Below are positions 25,608 through 60,363 of a stretch of 64,000 bases of DNA, piece by piece. The stretch lies in the NCBI GenBank assembly GCA_000165425.1, contig CT868014.1, positions 1 to 64,000 on the forward strand, written 5' to 3'. The stretch comes from Paramecium tetraurelia. Lineage: Eukaryota. The position numbers and the translations under genes are program-made. The notes below the pieces were generated by a model. The model worked only from the letters and a program-made list of their open reading frames with translations, searched no databases and had not been told where the DNA came from. The stretch's first letter is position 1; every line of letters begins with the position of its first letter.

Positions 25608-27350
25608 TCAAACGAGGAATTCTCTAATTTATTCTATGATTTATCTATTTGCAGATTCAGCAGCATTCACTCCATTGCTTCTCATGCCCATGTTCTAGAA
25701 TCCGTGGGGAAGACTTTCAAATACTTTTAGTTTGATATTCTCTAATCCATTATCTTTGCAATAATGAACGAATTCTACAGAGTTATCCAATAATACATCA
25801 TCAGATCCCACAAAGATAACAAAATCTTTGGGAAATTGTTGTATAACTTCCTGGGGAGTTAGAATGGGAGATGCATAATAATCATTTGGTAGATCTGATT
25901 GATTCTTAAGATAACTCTATCTACACAACATTAAGAGTCCCATGGGTATCATTTGATCATTCATGCTTTTGAGATTAGAAGGCACTACATCACAAAGATT
26001 CAAATTGACAGCAGGGTATTGTAAGACAATTTTATCCGGGACTCTTTGATTTGTCTCTATTGCTCTAATCACTATTCCCAAAGCCAAATTACCACCAGCA
26101 GAGTCTCCAATCAAAATGATATTTTTAGGTGAGATATTGAAATAGGCAGAACTAAAATGAACAATCCACATGTAATATTGCCAGCAGTCATCAAGAGCCA
26201 ATGGAAATGGATTCTCAGGGGCCAAACGATAATCAATTGAGAAGACGACTGTATTAGCCAGTTGATTAACCCATTTTCTGGTGTATGATTAATGAGAAAA
26301 GGAAGACATAGAGATGAATCCTCCTCCATGTATGTGAATGATTACATTCTACATAGTATGTACACCCAATTCTCCGATCTCATTCCTTGATGAAATACAA
26401 CAACCTCCAAAAAAGTTAGACGACTACTACAGTTATTGTATATGTTATGTCCTTTGAATTTGGAATTCACTTTTGGTCAAATTTCTTACTGCCTATACAA
26501 AATCTTAATTAGATATTTTTTGCTTAAAGATTTACTTATGACACATCACTCTAACTCTAATGTCATAGTCATTCTGTTTCTTTCTGATAGTTCTGAATGC
26601 TACCTAATAGAGTAAATTTTTAGGAATATCAGTTGAATTGGTATTACAATGATGCAAAGTATCTAAGGTAATTTGATTGAATAATCTTGGAATATAGATT
26701 ATTTTCTTCAGTTTCACTTATTCCAATTGTAATTTATATCCGGCTTTTACTATTTTGGAGTCGTCTATAATTCTCCACAATTGCAAAGCATGTTCAAGTG
26801 TTGGATTAGTGATTATTTCTGTGGCAGCCAGATCGGTTTCCTCTTGGTTTGATAAATAATAAAGAGCCTTCAAGTTCCTAACTACACATTACATGAATTA
26901 AGATTGATATTGTTTCCCAGAATTTATGTATGCGTGTCCCAAAGATACTTTTTGATAGAAATTTCTTAATTACTATTTGACATTCCCAGGTTCATCCAAT
27001 TTGATTACTTCGATATTCGGAATATTCATATATTCTTCGTCATTGAAAATAGTATTTTTTGGTTTTTTGTTGATATAAGGCAGCATCTCAGTAACTTTCT
27101 TTATTTTTTCAAGTTCAAAAGCCAATTTTATTTAGTTACCTCTGTTGTCTTCCATATCTGACAATTCATCAATTTTTGAAAGCACATCATTCTAAACAAT
27201 ATTCAAACATCTCTTCACGAATATTTTGTTTCCATCTGAGGAATTCACTTTCTCTATAGTACTTTTGAATTGATTTAGAGTTTAAATGATTTTTTAATTA
27301 TTTGTTTTCTATATGATAGCTGTTATATTGATAAATTCTTCTTCAGTCAT
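25608..27350 (-). CDS. Hormone-sensitive-lipase (GDXG) family lipase/esterase
   Basis: IHIHGGGFISMS, SIDYRLAPENPFP, LIGDSAGGNL, LPHGF. Confidence 0.92.
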
Positions 27351-27480
27351 TTATTTTATAATATATATTTTTATTAAAATATCATGGATTCATAAATACA
27401 TCATCCTAAGTCCTTGACATAACCAAACATCACTCCCTCAATAAACCTAAATTTTATATAGTAATATTGATCTTAATGCT

Positions 27481-27536: not shown

Positions 27537-29109
27537 ATGAAATTTAGTCAAACCCCAAAATCCACTTTAACCGAAAATTTCAATCCACCTCCTGGATATT
27601 ATATTGGGAATGATTTAAATGATATGCTGAATACCATCAAGACTAAACCACCCCAATAACAATTCTCGAGATCTGATCGATTTGGAGATATTCAAACAAA
27701 CATTCTTCCTCAGAGTAAAACTGTAGAAGGATTCGACAAAATTGCCTACTAAGCTTCTCTCAAACATTCCTTTTAAAATCAAAAACTAAAAGATCACAAC
27801 TATGTATATTAAGCATAAGTATGTAAGTTTTATTAATTATTATAGTCTTAGCAATAATTGAAGAAGACTCAAGATGTTGATAAGAAAATGAAGAACTTAC
27901 TTATCAAACAAATGGAAAACTGTTTGAACTAATAACTCGAAATAACACCATCAGGACAATGTGTTTTGGATAAATCTAAACTGTTGCAAAAGTTATAAAC
28001 CATTGCTCCATTACAAGTAACATAAATCAACTAAAACGCTAGCCTCCCGGTCCTGGACATTACAATTCTAATGAAACCTTAATTAAGCCCAGAGTAAGAG
28101 GAGCAATCATCAAAGAGGATAGCAAAAGAACAACATTCTAAGAGCCATTCTTGACAGCCGATGTGATCTATGGAAAGTAATTAACTAATAATGGATAAAA
28201 CGAATCTGAATCTAATATATCACAAAAGTAGAAGCAGAAGAAAATCAAATTTATTCAAGGAGATGAATATAACTTAGAAAAATTATTTGAAAAAGATAAG
28301 AAGAAGAAAGAAAGACAAACTGCTCCCCCACCTGGTCATTATGAAATCGAATCCCAATTCGGAAAAATTACAGAATTGAACTATTAAAATTAATGCTTTG
28401 ATAGTAGAGAACCCAGATTTAAATACATTTCAGATGAAAATCCAGGACCTGGTTAATATAAAGCCGATAATTAATTTAATGAATTTGGTGGATATATGTC
28501 AAAACTACCTAGATAACCTCCAAAAGATAATATGATTGTTCCTGTTGGGAATTACATTGTATAAGATTTATCAAGACCTCAAAGAAAAGATGGGCTCTTT
28601 CCATCGAGTTTTGGATCTGGGTCTAAGAGAATGAAAGAAGTCGTCATAAATAGTGAAGTTCCTGGTCCTGGTAGTTATGATAATTTGGTTTAAAAAAAGA
28701 AGCAATTTAAATATGTGTTTAGAAAGAAAGAGAAACGACCTACTATTGAAAAGTATCCTGAATCCTTTGGTTTATCAGTAGCCAAAGAATTAGTGTCTGT
28801 CAATACCACAAAGGAACGAAGCAAATCTCTTCAAAAACCAGTATAAATATTATAAATCTTTAGTAATAATCCTCTATGTTTTCTTCGAATGTCCAAAGAT
28901 TTAAGGATAAAAAGATCACAGAAGAGTTAGGCCCAGGAAGTTATACAGTGCATGATCAGTTTACGAAAACAACTTTTAATTAAGGAAATGATATCTTTGG
29001 AAAGGGTTAAAGAATCTAATAATAATAATTCTAAGAAATAGGTCCAGGGGCTTATGATGGAGATTACAAGGTTCTTAAGAAGAATTTTGTTAGAGATGTT
29101 CATTTTTGA
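27537..29109 (+). CDS. Sperm-tail PG-rich (SHIPPO/ODF3/STPG-like) repeat protein, probably ciliary
   Basis: Repeated PPPGYY, PGPGHY, PPPGHY, PGPGQY, PGPGSY, LGPGSY, IGPGAY with F....RF linkers. Confidence 0.85.
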
Positions 29110-29127
29110 CTTTTTAATATGTGTAAA

Positions 29128-29999
29128 TCATTTAAACATATTTTACATTATTTCCTTAAATAAATCTACTTTCTCTTTATCTTTAAACATGACCTTAAGA
29201 GTGTCGACTTAAATAGAATCTTTTTCATTTTAGGATTGAGTCTGCTTTGTACTGATCGCCCTGATAATAATGTTTTCCTATTTGGATCCCAAGGGTTTCA
29301 CTTCTGAAATTCCTTTAAATAATTATCCTGTATACAATATCTATTGAATTTGATTCCTGTTTATTAATATAATGAGTACCGATAGATAAAGTAAAATGTT
29401 TCCTTCTCTTTTGCCTTTTCCAAGGCAACTGTTCCTTTTTCTACTACATCATTGGCATTTTTTCGGAACTTCTCAATTTCAGCCACAAGTAATTACTCAG
29501 TCTATGCTGAATAGTCATATTTCATTTCAATTTACTTTGGTTCTTCATCTTCTGGTTTTTAATCATCTTCTGCTCCTAAATTATTATGCGAAAAGAAAAT
29601 ACCTGCATCCTCGCCACCATCACTTTCATCTGATTTAGGAATTTTGTAATCAATGCCAAATAAAGAGGGACCTGGTTTAGTCAAATCAATCCCATTAATA
29701 TTTGGCTCTTATTTATTTAGAGCGGCAAACAATCCTGTGCTTGGTTTAGTTGAACCAAACAAACCTCCACTTTAATTTACTGGTGCCTCTACATTGCTAA
29801 TTAAATTGCTTTAATGGTTTTCAAATAAGGATTAGATTTATCCTTCTCCATTTTTCTTTTCATTTGATTCTGTCACTTTATTCTCCTATTTATTGTCCTA
29901 ATTTTAATCGGAATCCTTCTCTTATTATGGTTCGTTGACTTCGTCTCCTTTTACAGATTCATCTACTTTTGACTTCAAATCAACTGATTGTTAAGCCAT
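29128..29999 (-). CDS. FG-motif protein with divergent Ran-binding (RanBP1/PH-like) C-terminal domain
   Basis: SGGLFGS, TGLFAA, LLFG, acidic linker, then EKGTVALEK..IFTLIYRNQIQQILYTGQL resembling RanBD. Confidence 0.55.
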
Positions 30000-30108: not shown

Positions 30109-30854
30109 TCATGCCAAACTGCCTCCTGTCCATCTTGCCTTAATTTCTATGGTCTCTCCAGGGGGTATAGATAACTAAGCTAAAGTTCTATTGCATTTTA
30201 CCCCTTGGAGTGGGATATCATTATAATAAAGATCCAAATCAACAATAGATCTATCTTACATTGATTTATTACCTATCTTGGAAGCCAAAGTATTTAAATA
30301 GTTGATCCTTGATATCATTGATAGTATTATTATCTGATAGATTTTTAAATTCGAATCCTTGTTTGCTTAAATTGGCTGTTGTTTTAAATTTCAAAGTAAA
30401 CTGTCCTTAATTCATTGCACCTTGTTATGAAATCATCAAATTTGATTGTGGGAATAAATCACTAACATCTGGTTATTTTTAAATTGGTTGAGAATCCCCC
30501 AAATCAGGAGGCTCACTATCAACCAATTTGGGTTATGATTTTATTGCAATATCATATTCAATGAACTCCTCCTCCCTTAGAATTAGTAATTCCACAGGTG
30601 GACCTTAAAGTGAAATCATTGGAAAGTAAACTTCCAAAGCCTTATTGAGCTCATCTCCTTTGCATAACATTCCTCTATCAGACAAATACACTCCTGGATT
30701 CAGTAGCATCTACTTTTTACTATATTTAATCACACATTTTTTACGCATATGCCCCATCTATAGTGTGTTAAATCAACTCGTTGAGAGTTGTCTTGGGATT
30801 GATTTAAGCAGTCAAACTCCTTCCACAATACTTCACTGATACTCGTATATTCAT
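30109..30854 (-). CDS. Ubiquitin-like domain protein (probably tandem UBL) ending RWTGG-SLA
   Basis: 232 aa after removing introns 30720-30744 and 30251-30272; C-terminal NRTLAQLSIPPGETIEIKARWTGGSLA* aligns by eye to ubiquitin [24 protein letters not shown]. Confidence 0.75.
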
Positions 30855-30939
30855 TTACAATTTAATAATAAATATATTGTCTATTAATAACTTTTTAAAA
30901 TATATAAGAATAGTCACAAGATTCATGTCGAAATATTTC

Positions 30940-31788
30940 TCATTCCTAATCAATTTAGTAAAGGAGGTCATTATCATCGTTGAGGAAGGATCTCTAAACC
31001 TCATTGCTGACATCTTCGTATTGCTGTGAAAATTGGGGAATACAATTCGCATTCATTATCTATCTGATTTTTTCAATTATCTCATAGAGATAATCCTTGT
31101 GATTTTCTAAGGAATTTAAATATACTCCTTTTAGGATTTCCAGTTGTGTACAGCTAGTTCCTTGTATCATTTGGTCAATACGTTTTTCTTTATTTAAGAG
31201 TAAAAAGAAATTTTAAACTATCTGAGGCACTTAATCCAAATGTTGAGATTATTCAATCAATTTTTCGCCGATTTGTTCTGTAGTGTAATGTAACTCAAAC
31301 ATTTTTAGAAGTGAAGTTAGTTCATAATAAAACTATTCATTTAGAAGGAATTTGATATTCTTAATAATTGAATTCCATTTCTCATTTTTGAAGAGTATTT
31401 TTTAATATTGTTGCTTATCGAATCGATCATGTCTAAAAAAATAAACGACGGCAAGACTCTTGCATTTCCAATTAAACAAACTTCGAGCTACGTGCTCCAT
31501 ATAGGAGTATGTATTTTTGTTTTAAAAAATAGCCTATAACTTTTCTTATTTGGCCTAGGCCTTATCGGAGAGCCCATCTTTGTGTATATTCTTTTTTGTG
31601 CCTGCCAAACTCAAATAGACGTGCCTTCCAATCTGAGTAAAATATTCTATTAGTTGTCTTTCCTCCTTAAAAGAACTCCAAATTGCTGGACTTTCCAATT
31701 TTATTATGTGGATTCCTACAGGCTTGCCAACTCCCTTTTTCAGTTGTACCTCATGTGTTTTGAGCTTTTTGATGTTTTTTGTTTTCAT
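30940..31788 (-). CDS. Hypothetical protein
   Basis: Intronless frame MKTKNIKKLKTHEVQLKKGVGKP... to TGA at 30940-30942. Confidence 0.7.
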
Positions 31789-31953
31789 TTTTAATTTGTA
31801 AAATGTTCTAAACTATTTCACTTTTGAATACAGACTTGATTTCTATTAGTGTAATATTATTTCACCTTCTTAATTCAATAGAATTTCAATAATAGAATTA
31901 ATGAAAATAGAAAATATAATATTTTTAAATTTATAATCTATATATATAATACA

Positions 31954-32802
31954 TCAATCAGATACGTATTATTAATCATAATCCTCCTCCACTTACATGC
32001 AGGCAAGTAATTCATTAATATACGACTCATAATCCTATAGAGTTTGGTCTAACTCGTAGAATTTCTCATATCGACTTTGCAGTTTTTCATCAAAATCTTT
32101 TTTGCTAATTAAATCTATATCCTCAAAACTTCTAATTAAGTATTTTGTAAAAAGACATTATAAAATGGTTTCAGCAGTGCTTAATGTTTTGTTATGTTGT
32201 TCTCGATACATTTGTTGTAAATTATCGTATAACAATTACGCATTCTAAAACTATAAATATGTAAAATATTCTTTGTGAAACTTCTAATTTAGCATAGGAG
32301 CCAATTTCTTTAGGGAAGGATAATTACTATAATTATCAAAATTATCGATAAGCCTTGGAACACCTTCTATGATTTGAAAATCAGGATTTGATGATTTGAA
32401 GAAAAAGACAATACAATTTTTATTTGATTTCTCAACAATTTGGCAATATTCCACAATAAGTTTTGGAATCTTTATTTAAGCAGCATTTAGAAATATCCCA
32501 GGAGCATCAATTTTTTACTTTGGTTTTGCTTTAGACTATCCATTCTACTCCACTGTCGCCTTATTATTCTAATCGACTGCTGCTCCATTTTAGTCCTGCT
32601 GCTCAATTGCCACCTTTTTTATGCCAGTCTGCTAAAAACAAATAAATCTCCCCAAACGAGATAGCGCCTATATTGCTTAAGTACTCTATTAATCGGAGCT
32701 CCATGCATTTGTTTTCTCCAAAGGCTTCTAAGTGTTCATTCCCTTTGGCTTACCAATTTTATTGGGTCTCTTCTCGTTATTTGGATGCTACTATTATTAC
32801 AT
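31954..32802 (-). CDS. Hypothetical protein
   Basis: MQQQQHPNNEKRPNKIGKPKG... open to TGA 31954-31956. Confidence 0.7.
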
Positions 32803-32820
32803 TATTTAATTTAATAAATA

Positions 32821-34662
32821 TCATTAATTGTTTTCTTCATTATACATTTATAACTTTTATTATACAACTATTAATCTCTCAGCAAGCGTTTACTTCTATT
32901 AATCTCTTATTAGAACAATATACTTATTGCATTTCTAAATTGTTTTTCTCGTTCAAAACAATCTTTTCGTATTCCTCAAGAAAAGCGATTTTCTACTGTA
33001 TTTTTTCCATTTAAACATTGATGATAGCATTGATACATTAATTTAATTTATTTTCTTCCTTAGTGATTTCAGCATTAGCTTTATTGATTGAGTCCTCTTT
33101 GAAATTGACAATTTAAGTTTGATCAAGAGCAATCTATCAATACTAATAATAAATACTAAGTTATTTTGCAAATTGGTTAACTCCTTGTTTGAATTACCAT
33201 TGCACAATTTTTCCCCATTGTGTTACTTCGATTCTTCAACCTAATTAAGGTGTTTTTGGAAAATGGAGAGATGATACGCATATAGATTGGAGGAATCTGA
33301 GAATATTTAGGGCTATCAAGAATTATATGAATAATACTTCTTCACTTGCAATCCTACTAGCCAAGTCATAAATGGTCAATTTTTGCAATTGTTCCTATCC
33401 ATCCAAAGAACGAATAATTGAGGATTACTTTTGAAAGGGATAGATGAGAAAATAGATAAGTATCTAAATAACATCTAATTTGACTTTTCTATTCTCATTT
33501 ATAAATTCTGCAATTTTATCCCAACCTACTTCTGGATTTTCTTGGATGTAATTCAACATTTCTGATAACTCCTTATCACTTAATTGAGTGTCTGATTGCT
33601 CTGCTTGATCAATTGAGATGTTAGTGCTTTTCAATCTTTCTTCAATATCAGTTTTAAAGAAGTCCTCTGCACAGAGTATGTTTGGGAAATGATTATTCCC
33701 ATAGCATCTTATACATAGAATAATTTCTTTGATATCTTTAATAGGTTTTTATTGGTACCAAACTAAATTACATTTCATTTAACATGAATCGCAAATAGGC
33801 CTAATATTATTTTATCTTGTAACCTTAATTTAAGTGACAAAGCTCTTATTGAATCAATAATTTATTATTCACTTAATTAATATTGTTCCAAACTATTTTT
33901 GGATTAAAATAACTCATTAAATAAATTATCAGGAATAGCAGGCTAAGGGATAATTTTGCCTTAGTATTAGTCTGAATCCACCTGAGAATTGATGATTCCC
34001 CAGTGATTCAAAAATCCATGAATTCTGACTATTGTGCATGCATCAGCAGCTAGTTGTCTCCGACATGCAGTAGTAGTCAAATATACATTTGGAGTGTTAT
34101 AATATAAATTAATAATAAAGTTCCTATGTTTCTTATAAAGTTGAGGGGTTTTGTGTTTGTTCTCTTGATTGAAATACTCCTTAAAATTCTCCTTCTCAAT
34201 TGAATGTATTTTGTCAATTCTGAACCAAGAAGTACAAGAAGGTACAATGATTTCAAAAGATCTCTTCCTAGTAACAAAAGGATCTGGAGGGAAAATTTAA
34301 AAATTTTGAGGCTGGATTGGTGGATTAGTCAAAGGTTACTGCAAAATTGGCTTATAAGTGTGTGGAGGAGATGCAGAAATGATAGATTGTTTGGATTATT
34401 AGACTTAAATATTTTAAGGATTCATTTATGGATATAAGAATGCTTGCTTAGGAGAAAGCATTGCTGGATTTATTTGTAATTGTTATTAGGTAATTTATGA
34501 TTAACTAGGTAATGTTGTTCCTTAAGACTTATTTTTAATCTAATTGGTTGATTGAGGAGGAGGTAATTGAACAATACTTTTTGGAATACGAACTGTTGTA
34601 TCTGCATCATGAACAATGAATCCATTTGCAACTTTCTTTAGAGTAACTTTAACTTATGGCAT
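32821..34662 (-). CDS. SWI3: SWI3/SMARCC-type chromatin-remodelling subunit (SWIRM, ZZ-like finger, SANT, coiled coil)
   Basis: IIVPSCTSWFRIDKIHSIEKENFKEYF..YKKHRNFIINLY..YLTTTACRRQLAADACTIVRIHGFLNHWGIIN (SWIRM); ICDSC..LCIRCY; GWDKIAEFI. Confidence 0.9.
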
Positions 34663-34715
34663 TTTCTTCTAATTCATTAATTTATTTATATACAATATAA
34701 TTAATTTTATATAAA

Positions 34716-35165
34716 ATGAACACAAAGTCATTTGAAGTTTTGATACATTCATAATATGCCTTCCACAGATGCAGAAGTGAAGTGCACAAGTATGAAGATT
34801 GCAGATAGACCACATCCCCAATTCCCAAGGATCCACGTCTGTGCAGAAACACCGCTAGAGAATTGGTTGGATGCTATAAGGAGGCGTAATTAATATGAGA
34901 TTATGATCATTAGAGAACGTATGCATCCATTGTGTTTGGCTCCTTTCAATGATGTCAGGGAATGTGTATTTAAGGCTGATGGCAATATCTTCAACTGCAA
35001 GAAAGAATCACAATAATTCGTTGATTGCCAAATGAATTAAGAAAAATATCAGGATTTCTTGGCTGTAACATAATATAATACAAATAGTTATCAACAGACA
35101 AATAAAAAGAAGCTTTATAATTTGATTTCTTCAACTACAGAGGCCATTTCGACAAGTATAGTTGA
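34716..35165 (+). CDS. NDUFA8: Quadruple CX9C protein, complex I subunit NDUFA8-like
   Basis: MNTKSFEVLIHSQYAFHRC; four CX9C helices (CRSEVHKYEDC, CRNTARELVGC, CLAPFNDVREC, CKKESQQFVDC); two introns. Confidence 0.8.
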
Positions 35166-35228
35166 AGTATTAGTGATTTATAAATATAAAAAGACATAAT
35201 AATATTAAAAATATCGATATTTTATTAA

Positions 35229-36062
35229 ATGAGTGAACAGTCCTACCCAATATCAAGAGAAAAACCCGAACTCAACCCTCAAAAGTATTAACAATCAGAG
35301 ATACTCTGACACTGATAATTCCTATAACAAATAACCGCAAAATTATAAACAGACCTATTAGTACAATTATTTTCTTAACTTCTTTAGTAAAAATCAGAAT
35401 CACGATAGACAAAGCAATATCAACTACTCTCACAATTATAACACCTATAGACAAAGCAATTCCAAATATCCTCAAAAACAAAGAGACTATTACTATCAAG
35501 CATAACCTGATCCAATATCCTAAAGTTAAAAGCCACTCAAACAATCTGAAACTGAAAAAGACTCTCAACAAACCAATAAAGACTTATTCCAATAGGCAAA
35601 TCAAGATGCCCAATTCCAAAATCAAATCTAAATTGGTGGCCAATCCAATCAAAATCAATAATTGAATGACATTAAACCCTCAACTCAAGTTTCCAATGAT
35701 AAATAAGAGCTATCAACGCAATAAATTAATGGTCCTCAATCTTAAGAGTCTGCATCTAAGGAAATCTAAAAACCATAATTTAATGAAAAAGTATAAACAA
35801 TTGCAAATGCAAATAGTGAATCAACTGCTACAATCTAACACAATAAATAGCTTCTTGGCATTTCATAATAATAATTGATTTAATAAAAATAAATACCATT
35901 ATTAGTATAATTTTTGATTCTACCTAATGACACAACTTCACAACCTTAATTGATCCCATTAACATTAGTAATTATTAAACTAATTATCTATAGTAAAATT
36001 TAACACAAACATACGAGTAATTAAAGCTATTAATTTAAAATGATGATTAACAATAGAGTTGA
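35229..36062 (+). CDS. Low-complexity Q/N/S-rich hypothetical protein, frameshifted near the start
   Basis: ATG frame stops at about 35309, but a long open frame offset by +1 continues to TGA 36060-36062 via one intron. Confidence 0.5.
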
Positions 36063-36149
36063 AATGTAATAATGTGTGTGTGCATATAAATATTATTAAT
36101 ATAATAAACTACTAAATAAAATACATATTCTGGTTTTACATAAAATAAT

Positions 36150-37709
36150 TCACAAATCAGATTTGCTTTTGTTTTATTCTGTATGTGTAAGCTAAACATT
36201 TTGTTTAACAAAGGCATAAAGATTCTCCTTGCTAAATTCTTAATCAAAATTAACTGGATTAGATGTCACCTTTGGAATATATAATTTAAATCCTGGGTAG
36301 TTTTCAATCTTCACACTCTCCAAATCATTGTATGACAAATCTATTTGAGCCAACACTAAATTCTCATTGCCCTTCAATTCCTTAGCCAAATCTTCAAATT
36401 CTGGTTCATAACTATAATGATAAAATCAATACGTTACCATTTGCTACTGGAAGTTTGACAAAACTGAACTAAAGTATTCTTATTTGAATTCAGAACCAAT
36501 TCATCAAAAGTATCTCCAACAACTTTGAGAACATTGGATGTTTGAGTTGGTATAGGTTGAGATTTTTGTTTTCTTGCAATTTTTCCGTTGTTGGCCCCAT
36601 GAACAAATCTCATCACATTCTCAACAGTGATTTGTCCATCAAATTTATAGACTTCGTTGGTTGTCTTATAATAATACAAAGAAGGGAATGTGGGAGTATT
36701 AATAAACAATTGACCTGTGACTTGATTCAACATGTAATTATCAGAGTAAACAGAAACTACAGTGATTCTTTTTTTGATGTTTGGAGCTATCAATTTTAGA
36801 ACATCCTTGGTTTCTTAACTTTATTGACTCCAAAAAAGAATCAAAGCTGGTGTATTTTTATTAAATATGGATGCGTAGCTCTTGTTGTCTAATTCCTCAA
36901 ATGATGGAGTTGAATTCTCATATAAGAAATTTGTTAATTTTTCTAAGGTTATTGAATCTGTGAATTCCTTTCTTCTCTCCTCGAATGTTCTGAATAGGAC
37001 TATTTATCCTTCATCTACATCGTATAATTTCTATAACAATAGTTAACTATCTTACTCTGGCATATGCTGAAGTGGTATAACCAAATTTCAAATTGGGGAA
37101 TATTTTAGCAGCCAATGAATAAATCTGTAATTCAGGTTGTTGAGAATCCTTAACGAAATATAATACACTCAAGGTATTATCACTTAAAAACTAAATTAAA
37201 GTTAGAATTTATTAATACCTTGTAAACATCATCAATTTCATCAACTCTCACTAATTTATCCTCAAGAGCTTGAGTTACAAAATTCATTAATCCACTAGCA
37301 CTTCTATCTCCATTATAAGGTACTGCATGTCCTTTAATTAGCAATATTATCGTTGGGAAACTCGATACTTTGTATCTATTTTCAAATTCAATTATTAAAC
37401 CTGTTCATAGCTTATTTTTCTTGATCTCCACCATTTAGTTTGGCAACAATGAAAGATTGACCAGCTTCTTTCACTTGTGTAGCAAATTGAGAATACTCGG
37501 GGGCAAATTGTTTGCAATGGCCACACCTATAATGAGAGGTAAAATATCAATTTAAACCATGAAGCATAAAACTCGACTAATAAGTAATCATACTGCTTGA
37601 TTGCAGCATTTATTGTATTATCATTAAGTACTAACACATCTCCATCATATGGGAATGTGTATCCGAACACTGATAATCCAATGACACAAAGTATTAAAAA
37701 CTTTAGCAT
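36150..37709 (-). CDS. PDI: Protein disulfide isomerase family (a-b-b'-a')
   Basis: Signal peptide, VEFYASW|CGHCK (intron-split), VLKVVGDTFDELV, C-terminal KSDL*. Confidence 0.92.
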
Positions 37710-37780
37710 AATTAAATATAAGTTTTGTTTTTTCAGATCTTAATTAAAATTAATTTATATTTCTATTATTTTACTTGACT

Positions 37781-38529
37781 ATGGCATACAAGCTTTTGAT
37801 TATTATTTATCCAAAAGAGTTAGATATTTTGGACTTTCAGATTACTTTAGAAGGAAGCACTTTAATATAAGAGTTATATGTATTTGTTTTAGAAACATAC
37901 CGTAATAAGTATGTTTGATGTCCATAATTTAGAATTCATAATCAAATTTATACATAGTGGATATCAAAAGTTAACGGATTGGGAAAATTTGCTTATGTAG
38001 AAGGATAAACAATATCAAATATATTTGGGAGTATGTAGAATGGTCAACTTTCTATTTTTACAGAGCCAGATAAAGTTCCTAAAGATAGCGAATTGGATAT
38101 TCTTTGTATTATCGCATCGTAATTATTAGAAACTGAAGATGATAAACCAATCTGTGTAAGCTTTATGCTAATCGATGGATCAAATGGAGTGACGTCCTCA
38201 TTAGAATACTAGTGTAAACCGAGTACTTTATTTTCCGATGGAATAAATGCATTATTCAACTTTAAATCCTACACTCAGTAATATCCAATTTAACAAAAGA
38301 GGAACGGCTGATTTTCAATTTGAAAAAGATGGAAAATAATTAATATTTGATTAGAAAACTACTTTTCGTTAATTAAATATAGTTTCTAACACAATTTTAA
38401 AAGTGAAAACGAGATGGACTGGAGGATGTTCCTGTGGTGATTAACTTAAATATTCAATATTTTAGAAATGTTTGCATTGAAATGTTATATATTATAGCTT
38501 ATGAATCATGTTAATAATTTTTAGTATGA
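37781..38529 (+). CDS. Ubiquitin-like domain protein (probably tandem UBL) with RWTGG motif; 3' end uncertain
   Basis: Introns 37909-37932, 38031-38063, 38278-38299 give 189 codons up to GG; FQFEKDGKQLIFDQKTTFRQLNIVSNTILKVKTRWTGG; first in-frame TGA 38527-38529. Confidence 0.7.
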
Positions 38530-40835: not shown

Positions 40836-43800
40836 ATGTCATTAAGTTTAAGTGATTTGACTAATCAATCATTAGACAAGATCAAAAAGACAATTACTAA
40901 AAAATAGTTTGAATTGAAAAAAGCAATAGAAGAAACTTTATGTAACATATTATTTCAATTTAAAGAGCTCAAAGATTACTTAGATGCTAATCACTTAATA
41001 AAAGTGTATTAATAGTGCATAGAATCAAAACAGGTTAAACTGATAGAACTAGCCTTGTTTGATATAAAGGTATGAAATTTCCTAATGATAGAATCTAGTT
41101 GAACAAGGTTTATTTGCAGGAGATCAAATGATTGGGGATAAAAAAGCCATTGATGTAATTTTGGAAATTGTGTTATCCTGCCAATAAGAGAAGGAGGAAA
41201 CACTGTAAATTCACATGATCAAAGCCATTCAAACTATTATGACTAATAGGAAACACCATATTCATGGACAACTAACCACTTAGGTATTTTAATTACTCAT
41301 CAATTTGCATTCAGGTAGTCAACATATTCAATATAATAGTCTCTAAATTTGTTGTAATTGTCAATGCAAGTAAGGAGGCATGTCAGAAAATAGTAAGTAC
41401 TTATTTTTAAAGATTGGAAGACTTTGGTATTTTAACAGAAACTGAGTATCAACAAGTAATTTAAAAGTACGAAAATCAAGGATAATTGGTTTTGGGTAAA
41501 TGTGGAGCAATAGTGAATGCTGAGCAATATATGCGATCATTGATGACTTCATTAGTTGATGAGGTCTAGATCTATAGTGAGAGAAGATAAATATATGATA
41601 GACAAATAGAAGATCTAAATTAAATCAAAGTTATAGATTTAAATCTGCAAGAACCTAATTTACGTAATGTAACAGTTGATAAAAACTTGATCTAAGTTTA
41701 TGTGACCAATGAATAGAATATTAAAAATGGAAAATTTGGATGGTGTGTTGTCTGCAGAAAGTAAGCATCACAATATTGTAAGGATTCCAAAGTACCTATT
41801 TGTAGCAAAGAGTGTAAGGTTGTACATCTTAATTCGATGAACAATTTCTCATAATGCTATCAACATTCAAACAATAGTGAGTTCTATTTTAAAGATGCCC
41901 TAGAGATATTGGAAATGCTATGTCAATTAAGTTAAAAAGATAGTGCTAATCCTTAATAAAATCAAACGGTTACTAAATGCAAGATCCTTTCTCTAGAATT
42001 AATCTATGAAGCTTTGGCTCAAAGTAATATCATATTACAGAATAAACAAAAATTCATTTAAGTAATAAAAGAACAATTATTGGAATCTCTTTTGAAAAAT
42101 TCTCTATCTTCAGAGAAATAATTACTAATATCTACTATGAATATCTTTATCTTATTGATTTGGAAAGTCAGAAGTCATCTCAAAAAGGAATTAGAAGCTT
42201 TAATTGAAAACGTTTATTTTAAGTTTTTAGACAGTAGCAATAGCTCCTTTGATCATAAATAATATACTCTTAAAGTATTTAATAAAATAATGACCAAACC
42301 CAGAATCGTCATTGAAATCTTTGTTAATTACGATTGTTCTTTAGGATAAAATAATCTACTAAAAAAGATCCTAGACATGTAGTGCAGAATCATCTAAGGC
42401 AGATTCAGTAAATAAGAGTTTCAAGCCTCCATTACTCAAAATTAAGAGACCTATCTTAAATCCTTATGTCAAGACAACTATTATGGATTTATTAAATGCC
42501 TTAGAGAATTTTGTGAATAGAATGAAGACCCATAAAATATCATATAGGTCTAATAATTTGATGACTAGGAAGACACTACCATTCAATCCTAACAATTATC
42601 ACAAGATCCAATCGAGAAATAAAAATAGATGAAATTAGAAATGAATAAAGCTGTTTAGAAATTCAATTTCAAACCTGAACACTGTATCAAGCATTTGATT
42701 GCTTGTTAGTTTATGGCGATAAGAGATCCTAAATTATTTGCCTAATTTCTATGGGAAAATCGAGATTTAAACAAAGACAAATTAGGAGAACTATTTGGTA
42801 GTTCAACAGAATTCAATTAATAAGTCTTCTAATAATACATAGATTTTATGAACTTTAAGGATTTGCAAGTAGATGAAGGCTTAAGATATATGCTTGAATT
42901 CTTTACATTGCCAGGAGAATCTTAATAAATAGATAGAATTATGGAAAAATTTGCATCTAAATACTGCATTGATAATCCTGGGATCTATAAATCAGCTGAA
43001 GCTGCTTATACGCTATCCTATCTATTAATGATGTTATAAACAGATTTGCACAATGAAAAAAACTTAGAGAAAATGACAGTTCCTTAATTCTTTAATTTAG
43101 CCAAAGGTATTAATGATGGTGAAAATCTTCCATAAGATTTATTGCTTGGGCTTTACCAAAGAATCTAAAAGACTCCTCTTGCATTGCATGCTAAAGAGTA
43201 AGCTAAAAGAGCACTTGAGTAAGCTAACTAAGTGGATTAAAGAAGGAAACATGCAATGTTAGCCAAAGAGACTGAGGAGTCTCTAAAAAGATGGTTTAAG
43301 GAACACCCTAATTAAGATGCTTATTTCTATGCTAATTCTATAGATCATGTCAAATCCCTATTACAATAAACTTGGAGTGCTATTTTCGCCTCAATTAGTG
43401 TATTCCTAGAATAAGCTGAAGATAAGTTATAGATAGCCTTATGTTTTGAGACTATTCAATCCTGTATCTATTTGATGGGTAGATTTGATTTAGATGAAGA
43501 AAAGGATACCTTTATCAGTTTTTTATAGAGATACTGTACTGGTATTCCAAATACATATCGATAAACAGTGGGAGTTTAGGCATTAATAAGAGCGACAATC
43601 TAATCTGGTTAATATTTAAGGAAAAGTTGGAAAGTAGCATTGCAATTAGTTTCAAGGTTAGAAATCATGCATCAAGCTGTGAGGAAAATAAAGGTAGATT
43701 CTCCTTAGAAGGAAAGTTATAATCAAGAGGATATTCAAAATATCGAAAGATTGTTTTAACTTATCTCCTATGATTAAATTGATAAGATATTCAATATGTC

Positions 43801-45780
43801 AATTAATTTAGATTCAAATTCCATTTTGGAATTCATTAGAGCCTTATGTGAGTTATCAAAGGAGGAGATCAAATAAAACAGAACATTCCTGTTGAGTAGA
43901 TTGATTGAAGTTGCTGATTTTAACATGGATAGAATTAAGATTGTATGGTCAAGAATGTGGGAAATAATGAGGGAACACTTTCTGGAAGTAGGATGTCATC
44001 AGAATGTTGATTTAGCAATTTATGCTATAGATTAATTAAAGTAATTAAGTTGCAAGTTTTTACAACAACCTGAATTAGCTAATTATCATTTCTAAAAAGA
44101 GTTTCTCATGCCTTTTGAATAGATATTCAGTCACAGTCAAGCGCAATCTCAATATAAAATTTAGTTAAGGGAATACTTGTTATCTTGTATGTGTATGATA
44201 ACTAATGTGTGTTTTAATTCACTTAAAAGTGGTTGGAAAATCATAATGAGTATTGTAAATTAAGCACTCCAAGAGGATTAATAGTAGCTAGTAAGATTGT
44301 GTGTACAGATTACAGATAAAATTATGGAAGATGTAAATAATCAATAGGTTAACCAAGAAATCTATATGGAACTAATTTAAGCATTAATAAAATTGACCAA
44401 GAACAAAGAAATTCATATAGTTGAGAATGCTATCAAATAATTGAAGACATTAGTTGATCACATAGTATTGATAAAAAATAATGACAATAAATTTTTGGAT
44501 TCATTGTGGATTCCTGTTTTGTCATCATTATCTATCTTATACAGCGATGAGAGAGCAGATGTTTAATAATTAAGTGTTCAAACACTCTTTGATTTGCTTT
44601 AAAAACATGGATCTTATTAAACAATAGAATTCTGGAAGATGATATTGAGGGGAGTAATAAGACCATTATTTGAGGAAATCCAATTTTCCAAATTAAAACT
44701 CAAAAAAAAATAGTAATCCAAGAAATCTATAGCATCAACTTGCAAAATGACATTTTAATTGTTTACAGATTTAGTGATTTCACGAATTCAATAGATTTAC
44801 CCTTGCATTAATGATTTAATAGACATATTAGTATAACTTGTCTTGTAGACTCAAGATGTAAATATATTTAATTATTAATTTAGTATATCTCTATTTTATG
44901 TCTTTAATCACTAAAGAAAATAATTTAGAATGTAGGTCAATCTTTAACAGAAGATAATTGGAATGTGTTAATAGAATAAATTCAACATTTATTGTAATAA
45001 TGCTCTCCAACCGAATTATTAGAAGCATTTAATTTGGATGAAGACTTTTAGAAACCTTTGGATGAATTATTAAAGGAAGAGATTAGACCCAAAAAGTTTA
45101 GTCTTAAAATAAATGCCACAGAATGTTTATCAAAACAATCCATCTAAGAAAGATGTTTGGAGATTTTAGAAGTATAAGTGACATAATTTTAAAATCATAT
45201 TACTTAACAAAATAAATAATAGATTTTGCAATTGTTTCAGGAATAATATTAAAAATGTAGAAGATTTAACACTAGTTTATATATGAGATATTTCTTGGAA
45301 CAATGGGGAGTTTAATGGAATTTTGTATAAGGAAGTTCATAAGAATTTGATGATTTGGAGAATACTTACACAACTCAAAACAAACAATTGAGTTTTATAA
45401 ATATTGAGTTACTAGCAGCTAAGGTCCTTATTACTTTTAGTAATGATCCTTTCTCTTTTGTAGAATAATTAATCTCAAGATTTCTTGATGCTTATAATGG
45501 GTTTTCAAAACCATTACATCGTTAAGACACTTTGAATGGCAATATAGAACAATTAAGACACCTTGAATCTTAGATTGTCATCAGTAGATTACAATTATTG
45601 TTTATGGAAAATGTATTCCCTTGGTTAAAGCAGAATTTGAAATCAAAAGTTGTAAACAAGTGGCTGATTTAATTACTAAAGGCTGGGTTAAATGTTCCAG
45701 GGGTTGAGAATAAGGAATACAATAAAATTTTGGTAAATTTATTGGAGGAAATTATAAATTAAGAGAACAATGTATTTTGA
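40836..45780 (+). CDS. Large Sec7-domain ARF guanine-nucleotide exchange factor (BIG/Sec7 type)
   Basis: HUS box IFVNYDCSL; Sec7 [35 protein letters not shown] region [18 protein letters not shown]. Confidence 0.93.
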
Positions 45781-56327: not shown

Positions 56328-56370
56328 AAATTGAAATTTGGTTATATTAATTTATTGATATTATATAAAT

Positions 56371-59300
56371 ATGATGTTTATTCTTATGAGTCTAATTTTG
56401 GTGAGTCACTAAGAGTTATTATTAAAAGTGGATTAATGCACTTGTAAATAAATTCTGAGTTCCTTTGATTGTAATCAATTGAGTTAATGTGATTGGAACA
56501 ATGAATCTGGTTTATGTGAAGATCGTAAATATACAGATTCAGATTCCTATTGCTCAATAAATTCTACTAATTGTCCAGTAGATGGCTGTGCTTTATACTA
56601 AGGTATTTGTAAACCTTTCAGTGGTTGCACTATATATCAAGCAAAGACACATGATGAGTGTCAGAAGATTTCTCGTTTATGCACAGGAAATGGTGAAAAT
56701 TGTATTTAGATGGAATGGACATGTGATAACTATCAAAATTAAATTGCTTGTTAGATAGATTTGGAGGGATATCCATGTAATTGGAATAAAGAAAGCAACA
56801 AATGTTATTAGATATTAAAATGCCAGGAAATCCCATAATCTTACAAAACTCATTAAGCCTGCTATCAAGTAGGAATAAAGTATGATTTAAAATGCACTGC
56901 CCAATAGGGAGGAGGTTGTATGGATATAGCAGAGACTTGCAAAAATTTACCGGAAGTAGGGTGTGTAATCAAATTAAATGGGGACTCCTGTTTTTGGAAC
57001 GTATCTTCATGTTAAGATTACATATGTTAAAATGCCCCTGCTTCTAATACTACCCATGAATAATGTTAAAGTTTCTTAAGTACTTGCACTGTAAATAATG
57101 AGCAGAAAGGATGTATGTAAATTGCATCAAAATGTGATGATTATCAAAATAAGGCATAATGTGTATATGCCGGTGAAGATTTGTGTGTGTGGTCAGAAAT
57201 GTTTTGTAAGGATGGAGATACTATTTGTGAATCAAAATAAACATGCAAATCTTGGTTGTGTGAAAATGCTTCATCTACTTACAATACCGATAGTTTATGC
57301 AGATAATTTAAACATTAGTGCACAGTCAATAATACCAATGATGGTTGTATTTAAAGGTTAGATTCATGTTCCAAATACGAAAAATAATAATAATGTGTTA
57401 GTTTGTTGGACGATTCAAAAAAATGTTTTTGGAATGGAACTAAGTGCGTTGATAAAACTTGTGACAACGCTACTCTTTCCAAATATAATGAGAGTTCTTG
57501 TAGTAGGTACATGCCATAATGCACTGCTGGTGGGGACAATAAATGTGTTCTTAAGACTTGTAATACATATTTAACTGAAAATCTATGTAGTAAGGACTAT
57601 TAGAACAATAAATGTAGTTGGAGTGGTTCTTGTAAATAAAAGACTTGTGAAAATGCAAGTGATGATTTGATCACTCACTCTGATTGTTAGTAATGGTTAG
57701 AAGGTTGCACAATTAAATAAGATCTTAAAGGATGTTAAAATTTAGCAGATTCCTGTGATGCTTATAAAATAGAAGATTAATGTCACTTGGCAGGCACTCC
57801 TAAATTTTAGTGTTTATGGATAAATGGGTTGTGTGTTAAGAAGGATTGTTCTTTTGCTAGTCTTGATATAGATAATGATGAGGAGTGTTTAAGTTACTTA
57901 GGAGTGTGTATGATTAGTGATAAAAAAAGAGGTTGTGTAAATCGCAAAAAAAATTGTCCCGATTTATTGGAACATCAATGCTCTATACCCAGTCAGGATA
58001 CATTGTGTTTTTGGAATCAGGCATCATCACAATGTGAATTTAGATAATGTACTTAAGGAACTTCAAATTCATTCCAAGCTTGTTAGCAGTTTTTACCCAC
58101 TTGTACAGTTAAACATGATGGTACTAATTACCTTGGATGTATAACCAAATCAGATAAGTGCAGTGCTTATAAGAATGAATTTATGTGCATTGATAGTTTG
58201 ATTGAGGGTCTATGCATATGGAACAAGAGAGTTATTCCTTATGCTTGTGAAAAGAGGTCATGTTAGAATTCAGATCAAACTGCAAGTGATGAAGCATGCA
58301 ACAATTTTTTGAGTACATGCACAGTCAATTCTGACCAAACTTAATGTATGGAACGCAAAGAAAATTGTAACTTATATTTATAGGAATTCAATTGCAGAAA
58401 AACTAAATCAGGAAGTTAATGTATCTGGTTAAACAATGTATGCACGTCTAAGACTTGTGATAAGGCTGATAAGACATACACTTCTCATTAAGAATGCCAA
58501 CAGTTCAGCAAGAATTGCACTACAAATGGGAAGGGATGCATTCAAATTGATTAATGTTCTAAATATACCACTAGATCAGGATGTGTAATTGATCAGAACA
58601 ATTAGCTATGCGTATTCTAATCTAGTTGCAACTTGCTTTAATGTAGTGATGCTCCTTACTCTTATTCCACTGATGAATAGTGTAAAACATATAAATCAGA
58701 ATGCACCACTAATGGGAATGGTTGTGTTTTGAGAACATAGTGTTCAGATGCTTATATTTAATAAGCTTGTATTACTGACTCTAAGGGTAACAAGTGTTCA
58801 TGGATTAACAATAAATGCCTTGATTATAATTGTTCAACTGCTCCTGCTAACTATGTCACTGAGCTTGAGTGTCATATGCATCAACCAGGATGCACTGTAA
58901 ATTAATCTGGAGGTTGCATTAAAAAAGGTCGTTGCGAAGATGCTAAAGTTTAAGAGGCTTGCACATCAGATAAAGATAAAAACCAATGCGTATTCTCGAA
59001 AGGTGTATGCAGGGATGTATTATGTTCAGATATGCCATACACAAATCATTATGAGTGTGTTAAATTTAAATCATCTTGCACTTCTAATGGAATCACTTGC
59101 ATTCCTCAATCTAATTGCAATAAAAAAATTCAAAGTGGTTGTTTCATAGGTTCAGATGGACCATGCTTATGGATTAAAAATACTTGTTATCAATATTCAT
59201 CTTGCACATCTCTCAAATTCTAAACTCATTAATAATGTTATGAATTCAGTGGTGAATGCACTACTGATGGAAATACGTGCATTCCAATAGACAAATGTGC

Positions 59301-60363
59301 CAATCTAAATTTTAACAGTTGTTTTTAGGGAACAGATGGAAAATGTGTGTACATAACAAAAGATTAGAAATGCTAGCTATACACAGGTTGTGGCTCTCTC
59401 CAGTACGATGATCACCAAAATTGCTAGAGTCTAAGTGACAATTGTACAACCAATGGAACTAAATGTATTGAATTAGGAGAGTGTTCATCCTATACTTAAT
59501 AGATAAGTTGTTAGTTGAATAAAAATCGTAAAAAATGCTATTATGATTCTTAAGCAAAAAAATGTGTTGATTTGCAGTGTTCTCATCTGCAATTTACAAC
59601 TCATAGTTAATGCAATATAGAATTAGAAACTTGTACATCCGACAACATCAAATGTATTAAAATAGATAAATGTGAAACATATCAATAAAACTATTGCAAT
59701 CTTGCACCCGGTTTGGATGGTAAATGCAGTTATGATTTAAAAGAATAGAAATGCAGATAGATTCACTGTTAAGAATTGTTAGAAAATTGCTCTCAAATAA
59801 GTACATGCATAGATAGTGGTCTGGGATGCGTGGATTACTCAACATGTGATAAGTATCAAACTGAGAAAGCATGCAAATATGGTGGCTCTGATGGACATTG
59901 CATCTGGTATTAAGATGAAGGGAAAGGAAAATGTAAAATCATGGCTTCATGCTCAGATGCTTCATCTAGCATAGAGGCATGTTAATCAAAAATGCAAACT
60001 TGCCAATGGACTTAAACTTTGACCAAAAGCACTTGTGCATAACATACATGTTCATCAAAAAAATAAGAATCTTCATATTGTTAACCAATCTTAGATTTTT
60101 CTGGTAAATATTACTAGATATGTACTATTTCTAATGGCCAGTGTTTTTCAGAAAAACTTTCTTCTCTTGGAGCATCAAATTGCTTTTCAGGTACAGCTTA
60201 CACATACACATGGGACTCTGCCAATTCTGTTTGTTTGCAGTGCGGAACAGTATATAACAATAAAAGTGATGAGAAAGATGATGATGATATTCTTCCAGAA
60301 CAAGGGATGAATTCTTAGGTACTATTTCCAATGTTGTATCTGATTATTAGTATATATATTTGA
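56371..60363 (+). CDS. Cys-rich Paramecium surface-antigen-like protein (about 1330 aa), probably GPI-anchored
   Basis: Signal peptide; periodic C-x-W...C..KTC..A......H..C..F...CT units; hydrophobic C-terminus VLFPMLYLIISIYI*; 3993 nt, intronless. Confidence 0.92.

Follow-up and report, generated by a model that had tools for sequence, protein, structure and literature searches.

Two genes on one stretch of Paramecium tetraurelia DNA carry the same RWTGG motif near their ends, which raises the question of whether their products are protein tags, cut after the diglycine and attached to targets as ubiquitin is. In the usual precursor of a conjugatable ubiquitin-like protein (UBL), the UBL domain comes last, and its GG is followed by just a short variable extension. 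RWTGG resembles known tails: its Arg sits at the ubiquitin and ISG15 position, four residues ahead of the final Gly, and its T-G-G is that of SUMO. The answer that we tentatively favour, with a probability of about 0.4, is that the two genes (A and B) encode paralogous tandem-UBL precursors that are cut after GG and conjugated.

Locus, motif and transcripts

The window (64,000 nucleotides) is P. tetraurelia macronuclear DNA. Genes A and B lie about 7 kb apart in it, are both transcribed and have small products. Gene A, on the minus strand at 30109-30854, has 3 exons and a product of 232 amino acids ending in RWTGG plus SLA; gene B, on the plus strand at 37781-38480, has 4 exons and a product of 209 amino acids in which RWTGG is followed by a 17-residue tail. 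Their features are as follows.

30745..30854, minus strand: A exon 1; opens with the ATG at 30854 and codes for the beginning of the N-terminal domain; the spliced model equals the public protein P0001
30720..30744, minus strand: A intron 1; 25 nt, GTA..TAG
30273..30719, minus strand: A exon 2; remaining N-terminal domain, variable linker, first half of the putative C-terminal UBL-like domain
30251..30272, minus strand: A intron 2; 22 nt, phase 2, 43 codons upstream of the last Gly of GG
30109..30250, minus strand: A exon 3; second half of the putative UBL-like domain, RWTGG (30121-30135), SLA (30112-30120), TGA (30109-30111)
37781..37908, plus strand: B exon 1; ATG at 37781, collinear with the N-terminus of the P. 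octaurelia protein P0004 (24/44 identical)
37909..37932, plus strand: B intron 1; 24 nt, GTATG..TTTAG, removing an in-frame TGA; placed from the frame and the orthologue
37933..38105, plus strand: B exon 2; 43/57 identical to P0004, plus-strand transcription
38106..38129, plus strand: B intron 2; candidate of 24 nt, GT..AG, in frame and free of code-6 stops; its removal fits P0004
38130..38277, plus strand: B exon 3; first half of the putative C-terminal UBL-like domain, 29/50 identical to P0004
38278..38299, plus strand: B intron 3; 22 nt, GTA..AAG, phase 2, 42 codons upstream of the last Gly
38300..38480, plus strand: B exon 4; RWTGG (38412-38426), 17-residue tail (38427-38477), TGA (38478-38480)

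The two RWTGG segments of the original prediction were confirmed. Six-frame translation of the whole window under code 6 demonstrated that RWTGG occurs exactly twice, and both copies lie terminally in genes that are transcribed. The expected count was 0.0013 (from residue composition), and none of 200 mononucleotide shuffles contained at least two. The motif follows NRTLAQLSIPPGETIEIKA and precedes SLA and TGA in A, and it comes immediately after QKTTFRQLNIVSNTILKVKT in B. The motif codons of the two genes differ synonymously (aca/act for Thr, ggc/gga for the last Gly), indicating that the motif is not a recent copy. The GG occupies residues 228-229 of 232 in A and 191-192 of 209 in B; in both it directly follows the last predicted strand, near the C-terminus. 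A C-terminal diglycine had been expected in both genes, and the motif is indeed there, but 17 residues stand behind it in B. For a UBL propeptide this tail is long, and it is conserved in part (7/17).

The spliced model of A was identical letter for letter to the public protein, and RNA reads agreed with it. RNA molecule ends clustered at 30842-30855, around the start of the gene, and exon 2 was covered at a depth of 30-76 on the minus strand. Loose ends at 30719/30745 read across the intron 1 junction in 3/3 raw-read runs, and the 22 nt of intron 2 were absent from an RNA contig (X3, depth 233). UniProt already lists A under the automatic name 'Ubiquitin-like domain-containing protein', so the novelty is smaller than had been claimed.

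The exon structure of B was set from the P. octaurelia orthologue, and public protein searches returned no P. tetraurelia protein for this gene. The proposed coordinates were right for A, but the end of B (38529) was not: the stop codon is the TGA at 38478-38480. RNA depth was 2-4 in exon 4 and 0 past 38513. Depth in the exon 1 bin was about a tenth of that in the next bin (0.5-0.7 vs. 5.6-12.4), and whether exon 1 belongs to the main transcript is uncertain. Overall, transcription was strong for A (depth 25-76) and weak for B (depth 2-12).

Conservation up to the diglycine

RWTGG was present in 5/5 A orthologues (P. tetraurelia, P. octaurelia, P. primaurelia, P. pentaurelia and P. sonneborni). 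The B motif is RWTGG in P. tetraurelia and RWSGG in P. octaurelia (two proteins, one orthologue). The predicted conservation of the motif and its GG therefore held (A 5/5, B 2/2), although with limited weight, as the orthologues compared belong to the P. aurelia group only. The GG was kept in all of these proteins while the extension behind it varied. In A, 79/88 residues were identical between positions 142 and 229 in P. sonneborni and 0/3 in the tail, a break that rests on this one species. In B, 32/42 residues before GG and 7/17 after it were identical between P. tetraurelia and P. octaurelia (binomial 0.002).

A functional boundary at GG, as marked by this break, would fit equally well if A and B were cut there and never attached, processing serving only to free or mature the protein or the tail, much as a UBL is released from a fusion partner. 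We consider this quite unlikely. The conservation pattern of the B tail could suit a small product or a regulatory plug, but the A tail is 3 residues long and is not conserved in P. sonneborni.

The residue directly after GG, Ser in A and Cys in B, could also open an intein-like BIL/Hint domain, in which case a Gly thioester would allow attachment without E1 or ATP. A Hint domain is far longer than the residues left before TGA (3 in A, 17 in B), RNA coverage of B is nil beyond 38513, and Pfam gave no Hint or intein match in P0001-P0004. The Cys of B, a point that speaks for such a domain, is Arg in P. octaurelia. Self-processing of this type is described for Tetrahymena BUBL1, and ciliates have such genes (PMC8616854). 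For A and B it is contradicted by the sequence (a stop soon after GG and no Hint domain), and we give it almost no credence.

Identity between P. tetraurelia and P. octaurelia was 64% in B and 95% in A. This fast divergence of B could also mean relaxed constraint. A might then be functional and B a decaying or near-neutral paralogue, whose motif would be a remnant of ancestry instead of a product of selection and whose open frame would survive because TGA is the only stop in this genome. The low RNA depth of B, its barely covered exon 1, the absence of a P. tetraurelia B protein among those returned and the lack of a Pfam match all fit decay. However, B has kept its frame, its length (209 vs. 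210 amino acids, with one 1-residue gap) and its intron-dependent frames in both species. Identity is uneven along the protein, as selection would give (24/44, 43/57, 29/50, 32/42 and 7/17 by segment), the change from T to S in the motif is conservative, and B is transcribed from the correct strand with a signal that stops near the stop codon. We regard decay of B as improbable.

A and B show little overall similarity, as originally noted: BLASTP aligned only the last ~22 residues (10/22 identical, E 2e-5), and two other B segments, part of B exon 3 and B exon 1, gave no match to A. The last intron is in phase 2 in both genes, and the distance from it to the final Gly is 43 codons in A and 42 in B. 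This shared position points to common descent of the putative C-terminal domains, though only ~22 residues align. Relatives outside the P. aurelia group were not detectable for A or B, and an A profile searched against 1.84 billion representatives had no match outside its own cluster. Judged from these searches, the 'family' so far comprises two paralogues and does not reach beyond the P. aurelia species group.

Predicted folds and the candidate tag

Pfam matches of A to UBL families fell below threshold but in the same C-terminal region in 3/3 orthologues scanned. UCH_UBL1 matched at E 0.0045-0.051 (best 17.4 bits, cutoff 24) and ubiquitin (PF00240) in P0002 alone (E 0.0097, 16.1 bits, cutoff 25.4). 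No Pfam UBL match of A reached its cutoff, and a PDB profile search gave 0 matches at E <= 10. The AF2 model of A was poor, with a mean pLDDT of 42.8 (56-67 in residues 140-229). With this model, about 38 of the 50 VIA-wide matches listed were ubiquitin or UBLs by title, aligned over about 127/151-230 with an rmsd of ~3 Å; the best VIA Z was 5.0, a range that the tool calls common, and Foldseek had no match at E <= 0.001. Ubiquitin 1-74 was placed on model residues 151-227, and residues 1-76 of the parkin Ubl were placed on 151-229, which puts the GG in register, and the C-terminus of ubiquitin was aligned to residues 227-229. These results lean towards a beta-grasp fold of the A C-terminal domain, which as a prediction is fairly well supported.

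The beta-grasp fold that had also been proposed for B did not emerge from its poor AF2 model (mean pLDDT 38.3), with which UBLs were 0/50 of the VIA-wide matches listed and absent from the Foldseek matches listed; even at E <= 10, B fell into no Pfam family. Residues 109-187 of this model run strand-strand-helix-strand-strand-strand, ending just before GG, an order of elements that fits a beta-grasp with its one helix. The ESM Atlas model of B (pLDDT 0.66) had as neighbours the OASL tandem UBLs, ISG15, NFATC2IP and TUG-UBL1/UBX proteins, at TM 0.34-0.45, all below 0.5. These neighbours cover both halves of the protein, ISG15 lying over residues 8-193 (TM 0.38 by the query, 0.46 by the match). 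The suggestion that the N-terminal halves are beta-grasp-like found low-confidence models only; that of A (pLDDT 33-44) begins strand-strand-helix and has a weak Pfam match to TUG-UBL1 (E 0.014). For B, and for the N-terminal halves of both proteins, the fold predictions are leads. In agreement with the original prediction, Pfam, PDB and profile searches assigned neither gene to a characterised UBL family.

The nearest ESM feature cluster of both proteins was Rad60-SLD (0.90 for A, 0.92 for B). With NFATC2IP and OASL among the structural neighbours as well, it is possible, but rather doubtful, that A and B are non-conjugated UBL adaptors or binding modules (cf. Rad60/NIP45 and OASL) whose GG is incidental and uncut. 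Rad60-SLD, NFATC2IP and OASL proteins carry tandem UBLs at their ends and are not known to be conjugated. R-W-[T/S]-G-G would then be kept as the strand end, with the Trp packing on the domain or binding a partner non-covalently. The partly conserved 17-residue extension of B fits such a role, as does the lack of dedicated enzyme genes among the ORFs scanned nearby. On the other hand, conservation falls sharply right at GG in A and B, the A tail is very short, and a structural role leaves unexplained why the sole segment that aligns between A and B ends in GG. To our knowledge, C-terminal UBLs that are not conjugated usually have no GG.

In the favoured reading as conjugated precursors, A and B would be diverged Paramecium-only paralogues of ~210-230 residues, in which a linker joins an N-terminal domain to a C-terminal beta-grasp UBL. 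The last strand would lead into R-W-[T/S]-G-G and a dispensable extension of 3 (A) or 17 (B) residues. A cysteine protease of the ubiquitin/UBL type would cleave after the second Gly, an E1 would adenylate and thioesterify the exposed Gly carboxylate, and an E2 would pass the protein to target lysines as a two-domain tag like ISG15, FAT10 and TUGUL. The same protease and/or E1 would recognise both proteins by their shared R-W-[T/S]-G-G. The search for extra E1, E2 or protease genes that accompanied the original prediction came out negative in the 23 long ORFs scanned (25.6-45.2 kb); linkage of enzyme and tag genes is not expected in a eukaryote. On the sequence evidence, A and B are plausible candidates for a lineage-specific protein tag.

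A bolder version, which we consider unlikely, makes them the two tags of a Paramecium-private pathway in which a dedicated protease and E1 read R-W-[T/S]-G-G. A would be the conserved housekeeping tag and B its fast-evolving, ISG15-like sister, with the 17-residue propeptide as a regulated lock on activation. Symbionts, parasites or selfish DNA might be the adversaries in a conflict that shapes B.

Newly found conjugatable UBLs are rare, and each known one has its own pathway, enzymes and targets. If A and B belong among them, new tags can arise by duplication and divergence while the enzyme-recognition tail is retained. If they are conjugated, tryptic digestion would mark lysines with a characteristic WTGG remnant, searchable in existing proteome data; in Paramecium, tagged constructs can also be microinjected for expression, and feeding can be used for RNAi. 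If they are not, they are two lineage-specific UBL-domain proteins of an ordinary kind.

Comparison with known systems

Rad60, Esc2 and NIP45, SUMO-like-domain proteins (PF11976), form the nearest ESM clusters of A and B, and Rad60 SLD2 was listed among the A fold matches; Pfam PF11976 was unmatched by either protein. Their tandem UBL domains lie at the C-terminus and, as far as we know, lack a conjugatable GG, unlike A and B, in which GG is conserved.

TUGUL, the N-terminal UBL1-UBL2 product of TUG/ASPSCR1, is described in PMC9556833 as a two-UBL unit ending in diglycine that is freed by a deubiquitinase-type protease and then attached to a target. TUG-UBL1 (PF11470) is the weak Pfam match on the A N-terminal domain (P0001, 15.9 bits, cutoff 23.3; no stretch passes alone), and the TUG-UBL1/UBX cluster is the best-TM neighbour of the B Atlas model (TM 0.45), both as leads only. 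Unlike TUG, A and B have no UBX domain or large C-terminal part and only 3 and 17 residues after GG.

Ciliate BUBL genes resemble A and B as ciliate-specific UBL genes, and the P. tetraurelia proteins have a Ser (A) or Cys (B) nucleophile after GG; A and B differ in having no Hint domain past GG and in that the Cys is not conserved. As in ubiquitin, SUMO and NEDD8 precursors, the last predicted beta-grasp strand leads into x-x-G-G and a putatively removable extension, while the unusual Trp at -3, the extra N-terminal domain and the long linker set A and B apart.

ISG15 and FAT10, vertebrate modifiers with tandem UBLs, are, like A and B, small, and A and B may likewise have two linked beta-grasp domains with GG ending the second. 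No sequence relationship to ISG15 or FAT10 was detectable, nor any PDB sequence match to a UBL. The A linker (~55 residues) is much longer than in ISG15 or FAT10, and the tail is R-W-T-G-G, in Paramecium only, against LRLRGG or CYCIGG. ISG15 is among the structural neighbours of both models, its precursor has a C-terminal extension, and B diverges fast between close species, as ISG15 does. Set beside ISG15 and FAT10, A and B are candidates for a two-domain architecture and for conjugation.

Two RWTGG genes, their expression and their surroundings

The window is AT-rich (28.7% G+C), with tiny GTA..TAG introns and with TAA and TAG as sense codons. In its six-frame code-6 translation RWTGG occurred exactly twice (0.0013 expected), once in gene A and once in gene B, the two genes of the original prediction, and at least two copies were present in 0 of 200 shuffles of the window. 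The pair is a real, non-random feature. Synonymous positions differ between the two sets of codons, and the motif was thus not recently copied from one gene to the other.

Motifs and exons of genes A and B
30121-30135, minus strand: RWTGG of gene A (codons read), followed by SLA and TGA
30854-30745, 30719-30273 and 30250-30109, minus strand: exons of gene A; the spliced product equals the public 232-aa protein
38412-38426, plus strand: RWTGG of gene B (codons read), followed by 17 residues and TGA at 38478-38480
37781-37908, 37933-38105, 38130-38277 and 38300-38480, plus strand: exons of gene B; frame set by the Paramecium octaurelia orthologue P0004

The 148-residue exon of gene A was 100% identical to a P. 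tetraurelia macronuclear protein (GSPATT00031690001 / XP_001428857.1 / UniProt A0BSE2), and a protein search with this exon returned no second P. tetraurelia copy. UniProt names A0BSE2 automatically 'Ubiquitin-like domain-containing protein'. The original prediction of a new ubiquitin-like (UBL) modifier family therefore keeps its non-random feature but loses part of its novelty. Transcription was followed in the raw reads (58 nt) of three oligo-dT runs. Gene A was covered on the minus strand at a depth of 25-76; the loose ends of intron 1 (30719 and 30745) were read across the junction in 3/3 runs, and intron 2 (22 nt) was absent from a transcript-like contig. At 30650, in exon 2, a minority C-to-G difference was seen in the reads (5/70, 8/74 and 8/30 by run) and was absent from the contig; either strain variation or an error might account for it.

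The spliced product of gene B (209 aa) was 64% identical to P0004, a P. octaurelia protein of 210 aa named 'uncharacterized', and collinear with it apart from a single one-residue gap. The first intron, of 24 nt, takes out an in-frame TGA; the second likewise has 24 nt and the third 22 nt. A model with an intron at 38035-38063 (205 aa) was rejected, as P0004 gives another exon 2 frame and two 24-nt introns. The extent predicted for gene A (30109-30854) was confirmed, while gene B ends at 38480 and not at 38529. With the last exon of gene B as query, P0004 was the only match in a word-index protein search, which can miss relatives and returned no P. tetraurelia protein for this gene. A query of 70 residues across intron 2 (38066-38275), in the frame of the rejected model, had no match at all, P0004 included.

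Gene B was transcribed at a low level on the plus strand. Its depth was 5.6-12.4 at 37919-38215 and fell to 2-4 at 38216-38512, with no coverage past 38513 in the RNA-seq reads. At this low depth and with 58-nt reads, no junction reads for its introns were among those listed. In the bin holding exon 1 (37622-37918) the depth on the gene B strand was just 0.5-0.7, compared to 5.6-12.4 in the next bin, and exon 1 is also less conserved than exon 2. The main transcript may thus start downstream of exon 1 and not include it, in which case the N-terminal domain of gene B would be lost.

A Pfam scan covered 23 of the long ORFs in the stretch from 25.6 to 45.2 kb, and no E1, E2 or deubiquitinase was found among them. 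Linkage of enzyme genes is not expected in a eukaryote.

Neighbouring genes identified by Pfam
25611-27389, minus strand: alpha/beta hydrolase (Abhydrolase_3)
27881-29236, plus strand: SHIPPO PG-rich repeat protein
33778-35007, minus strand: SWIRM-domain protein
36137-37621, minus strand: thioredoxin/PDI-like gene (Thioredoxin_6), well expressed
41243-45178, plus strand: large Sec7/BIG-type ARF GEF

The thioredoxin/PDI-like gene has a 31-nt intron (37525-37555; 6, 13 and 15 junction reads), and roughly thirty of its positions show another letter in about 20-75% of the RNA reads. The pattern suggests that reads of a nearly identical duplicate (ohnologue) were cross-mapped, and does not look like editing. 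The highest RNA cover of the region examined (depth up to 107) lay at 34652-35245 on the plus strand. A small ORF there shows a C-x9-C pair in translation and possibly encodes a mitochondrial protein of the CHCH type; it matched no Pfam family at E <= 0.001. Elsewhere, 56 N at 2483-2538 mark an assembly gap, and a very long open frame of about 1330 codons (56359-60360, plus strand) is cysteine-rich and repetitive, presumably resembling Paramecium surface-antigen-like proteins.

Constraint around the diglycine and probable kinship of A and B

BLASTP aligned A and B only over the last 22 residues to the end of the diglycine (10/22 identical, E 2e-5); two other segments of B, one from within exon 3 and the other exon 1, gave no match to A. 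The little overall similarity claimed for the two genes was thereby confirmed. Comparison of the two family profiles gave a probability of 75%, from the same C-terminal stretch. Conservation of the motif also held within the families: all five gene A proteins end in ...IKARWTGG before the tail, and gene B has RWTGG in P. tetraurelia and RWSGG in P. octaurelia.

The residues after the diglycine behave differently. Four species share SLA as the gene A tail, and P. sonneborni has NWE instead; between P. sonneborni and P. tetraurelia, 79/88 residues were identical over 142-229, compared to 0/3 in the tail. In gene B, the last exon up to the diglycine was 32/42 identical between P. tetraurelia and P. 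octaurelia, compared to 7/17 in the tail (binomial 0.002). With identity high before the diglycine and low behind it, the sequences place the break in constraint exactly after this pair in both families. CAAX-type prenylation of the gene B tail was considered and rejected, as its Cys is followed by only two residues and is Thr in P. octaurelia.

The last intron is in phase 2 in both genes and lies 43 (A) or 42 (B) codons before the final Gly. This common position argues that the C-terminal domains of A and B are paralogous, although most of their similarity is gone. Relaxed constraint or decay of gene B alone would agree with its fast divergence and low expression; its frame has been kept, however, and conservation against P. 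octaurelia is uneven (24/44 identical in exon 1, 43/57 in exon 2), and we regard this reading as unlikely.

Orthologues of gene A were found in P. octaurelia (95.3% identity), P. primaurelia (89.6%), P. pentaurelia (87.9%) and P. sonneborni (79.2%). Against 1.84 billion representative proteins, the HMMER profile built from gene A and two orthologues recovered only its own cluster. Metagenome scans gave 591 pattern matches with the gene A alignment and 223 with P0004, none of them confirmed in either case. Judging from these searches, both families so far appear restricted to species of the P. aurelia group. Nothing was found in the literature under the gene identifier; by title and the start of the abstract, RWTGG appeared only in unrelated contexts and none of the papers listed dealt with a ciliate-specific UBL ending in diglycine.

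Predicted folds

The profile of gene A gave 0 matches in PDB sequences at E <= 10, and P0004 gave only chance-level ones (best, Pcc1, E 0.011). In the C-terminal region of gene A, Pfam returned sub-threshold UBL families at the same place in 3/3 orthologues scanned, namely UCH_UBL1 (E 0.0045-0.051) and, in the orthologue P0002, ubiquitin (PF00240, E 0.0097). The AF2 model, from a three-sequence alignment, had a mean pLDDT of 42.8, with 56-67 over about 140-229, where strand, helix, strand and strand follow each other. Foldseek found no PDB match to this low-confidence model at E <= 0.001, and many of the weak rows were ubiquitin or UBLs. In the VIA-wide structural alignment the best Z was only 5.0; by title, about 38 among the 50 listed rows were ubiquitin or UBL domains, covering about 127/151-230 at roughly 3 A. 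Ubiquitin 1-74 fell on model residues 151-227 and the parkin Ubl 1-76 on 151-229, a register that puts the diglycine of gene A (228-229) at the place of ubiquitin's own. By ESM features the nearest clusters were Rad60-SLD and ubiquitin (0.90). The C-terminal domain of gene A is likely a beta-grasp. Its N-terminal domain offers less definite leads, a strand-strand-helix start at low AF2 confidence and a weak TUG-UBL1 Pfam match (E 0.014).

For gene B, Pfam returned no family even at E <= 10, and the AF2 model was poor (pLDDT 38.3). Against the PDB, Foldseek with this low-confidence model gave nothing at E <= 0.001 and no UBL among the matches listed, and UBLs made up 0 of 50 rows in the VIA-wide alignment. 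In this model, however, residues 109-187, immediately ahead of the diglycine, have their secondary-structure elements in an order that fits a UBL. In the ESM Atlas, the entry of P0004 was nearest by features to the Rad60-SLD cluster (0.92), and the neighbours of its model (pLDDT 0.66) were OASL tandem UBLs, ISG15, NFATC2IP, Rad60-SLD and TUG-UBL1/UBX proteins, all at TM 0.34-0.45, under the usual same-fold level. A UBL fold in gene B is thus a lead from modelling. Proteins of the Rad60/OASL kind carry UBL domains and are not known to be conjugated, and that A and B are of this kind is a real, if doubtful, possibility.

Putative processing and relation to known systems

Our preferred reading, to which we give a probability of about 0.4, is that A and B are paralogous, Paramecium-specific precursors made as tandem UBLs. 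A UBL protease would cut them after the diglycine, the cut forms would be activated and then conjugated, and R-W-[T/S]-G-G would be the element read by enzymes common to both. The analysis itself shows the gene models, their transcription and distribution, the kept motif, the break in constraint after the diglycine and the common intron position; the predicted folds are leads, and we infer cleavage and conjugation by analogy with known UBL precursors. Processing at the diglycine with no conjugation to follow seems quite improbable. Self-processing as in the BUBLs of Tetrahymena (PMC8616854, excerpt) is excluded, because only 3 (A) or 17 (B) residues follow the diglycine and the Cys behind that of gene B is not conserved. 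A and B are, in sum, a credible candidate for a lineage-specific ubiquitin-like tag, the tagging itself being putative. By sequence they are not members of ISG15, FAT10 or TUGUL, the last a two-UBL product of TUG with a diglycine end (PMC9556833, excerpt), but their putative two-domain architecture is most like that of these three.
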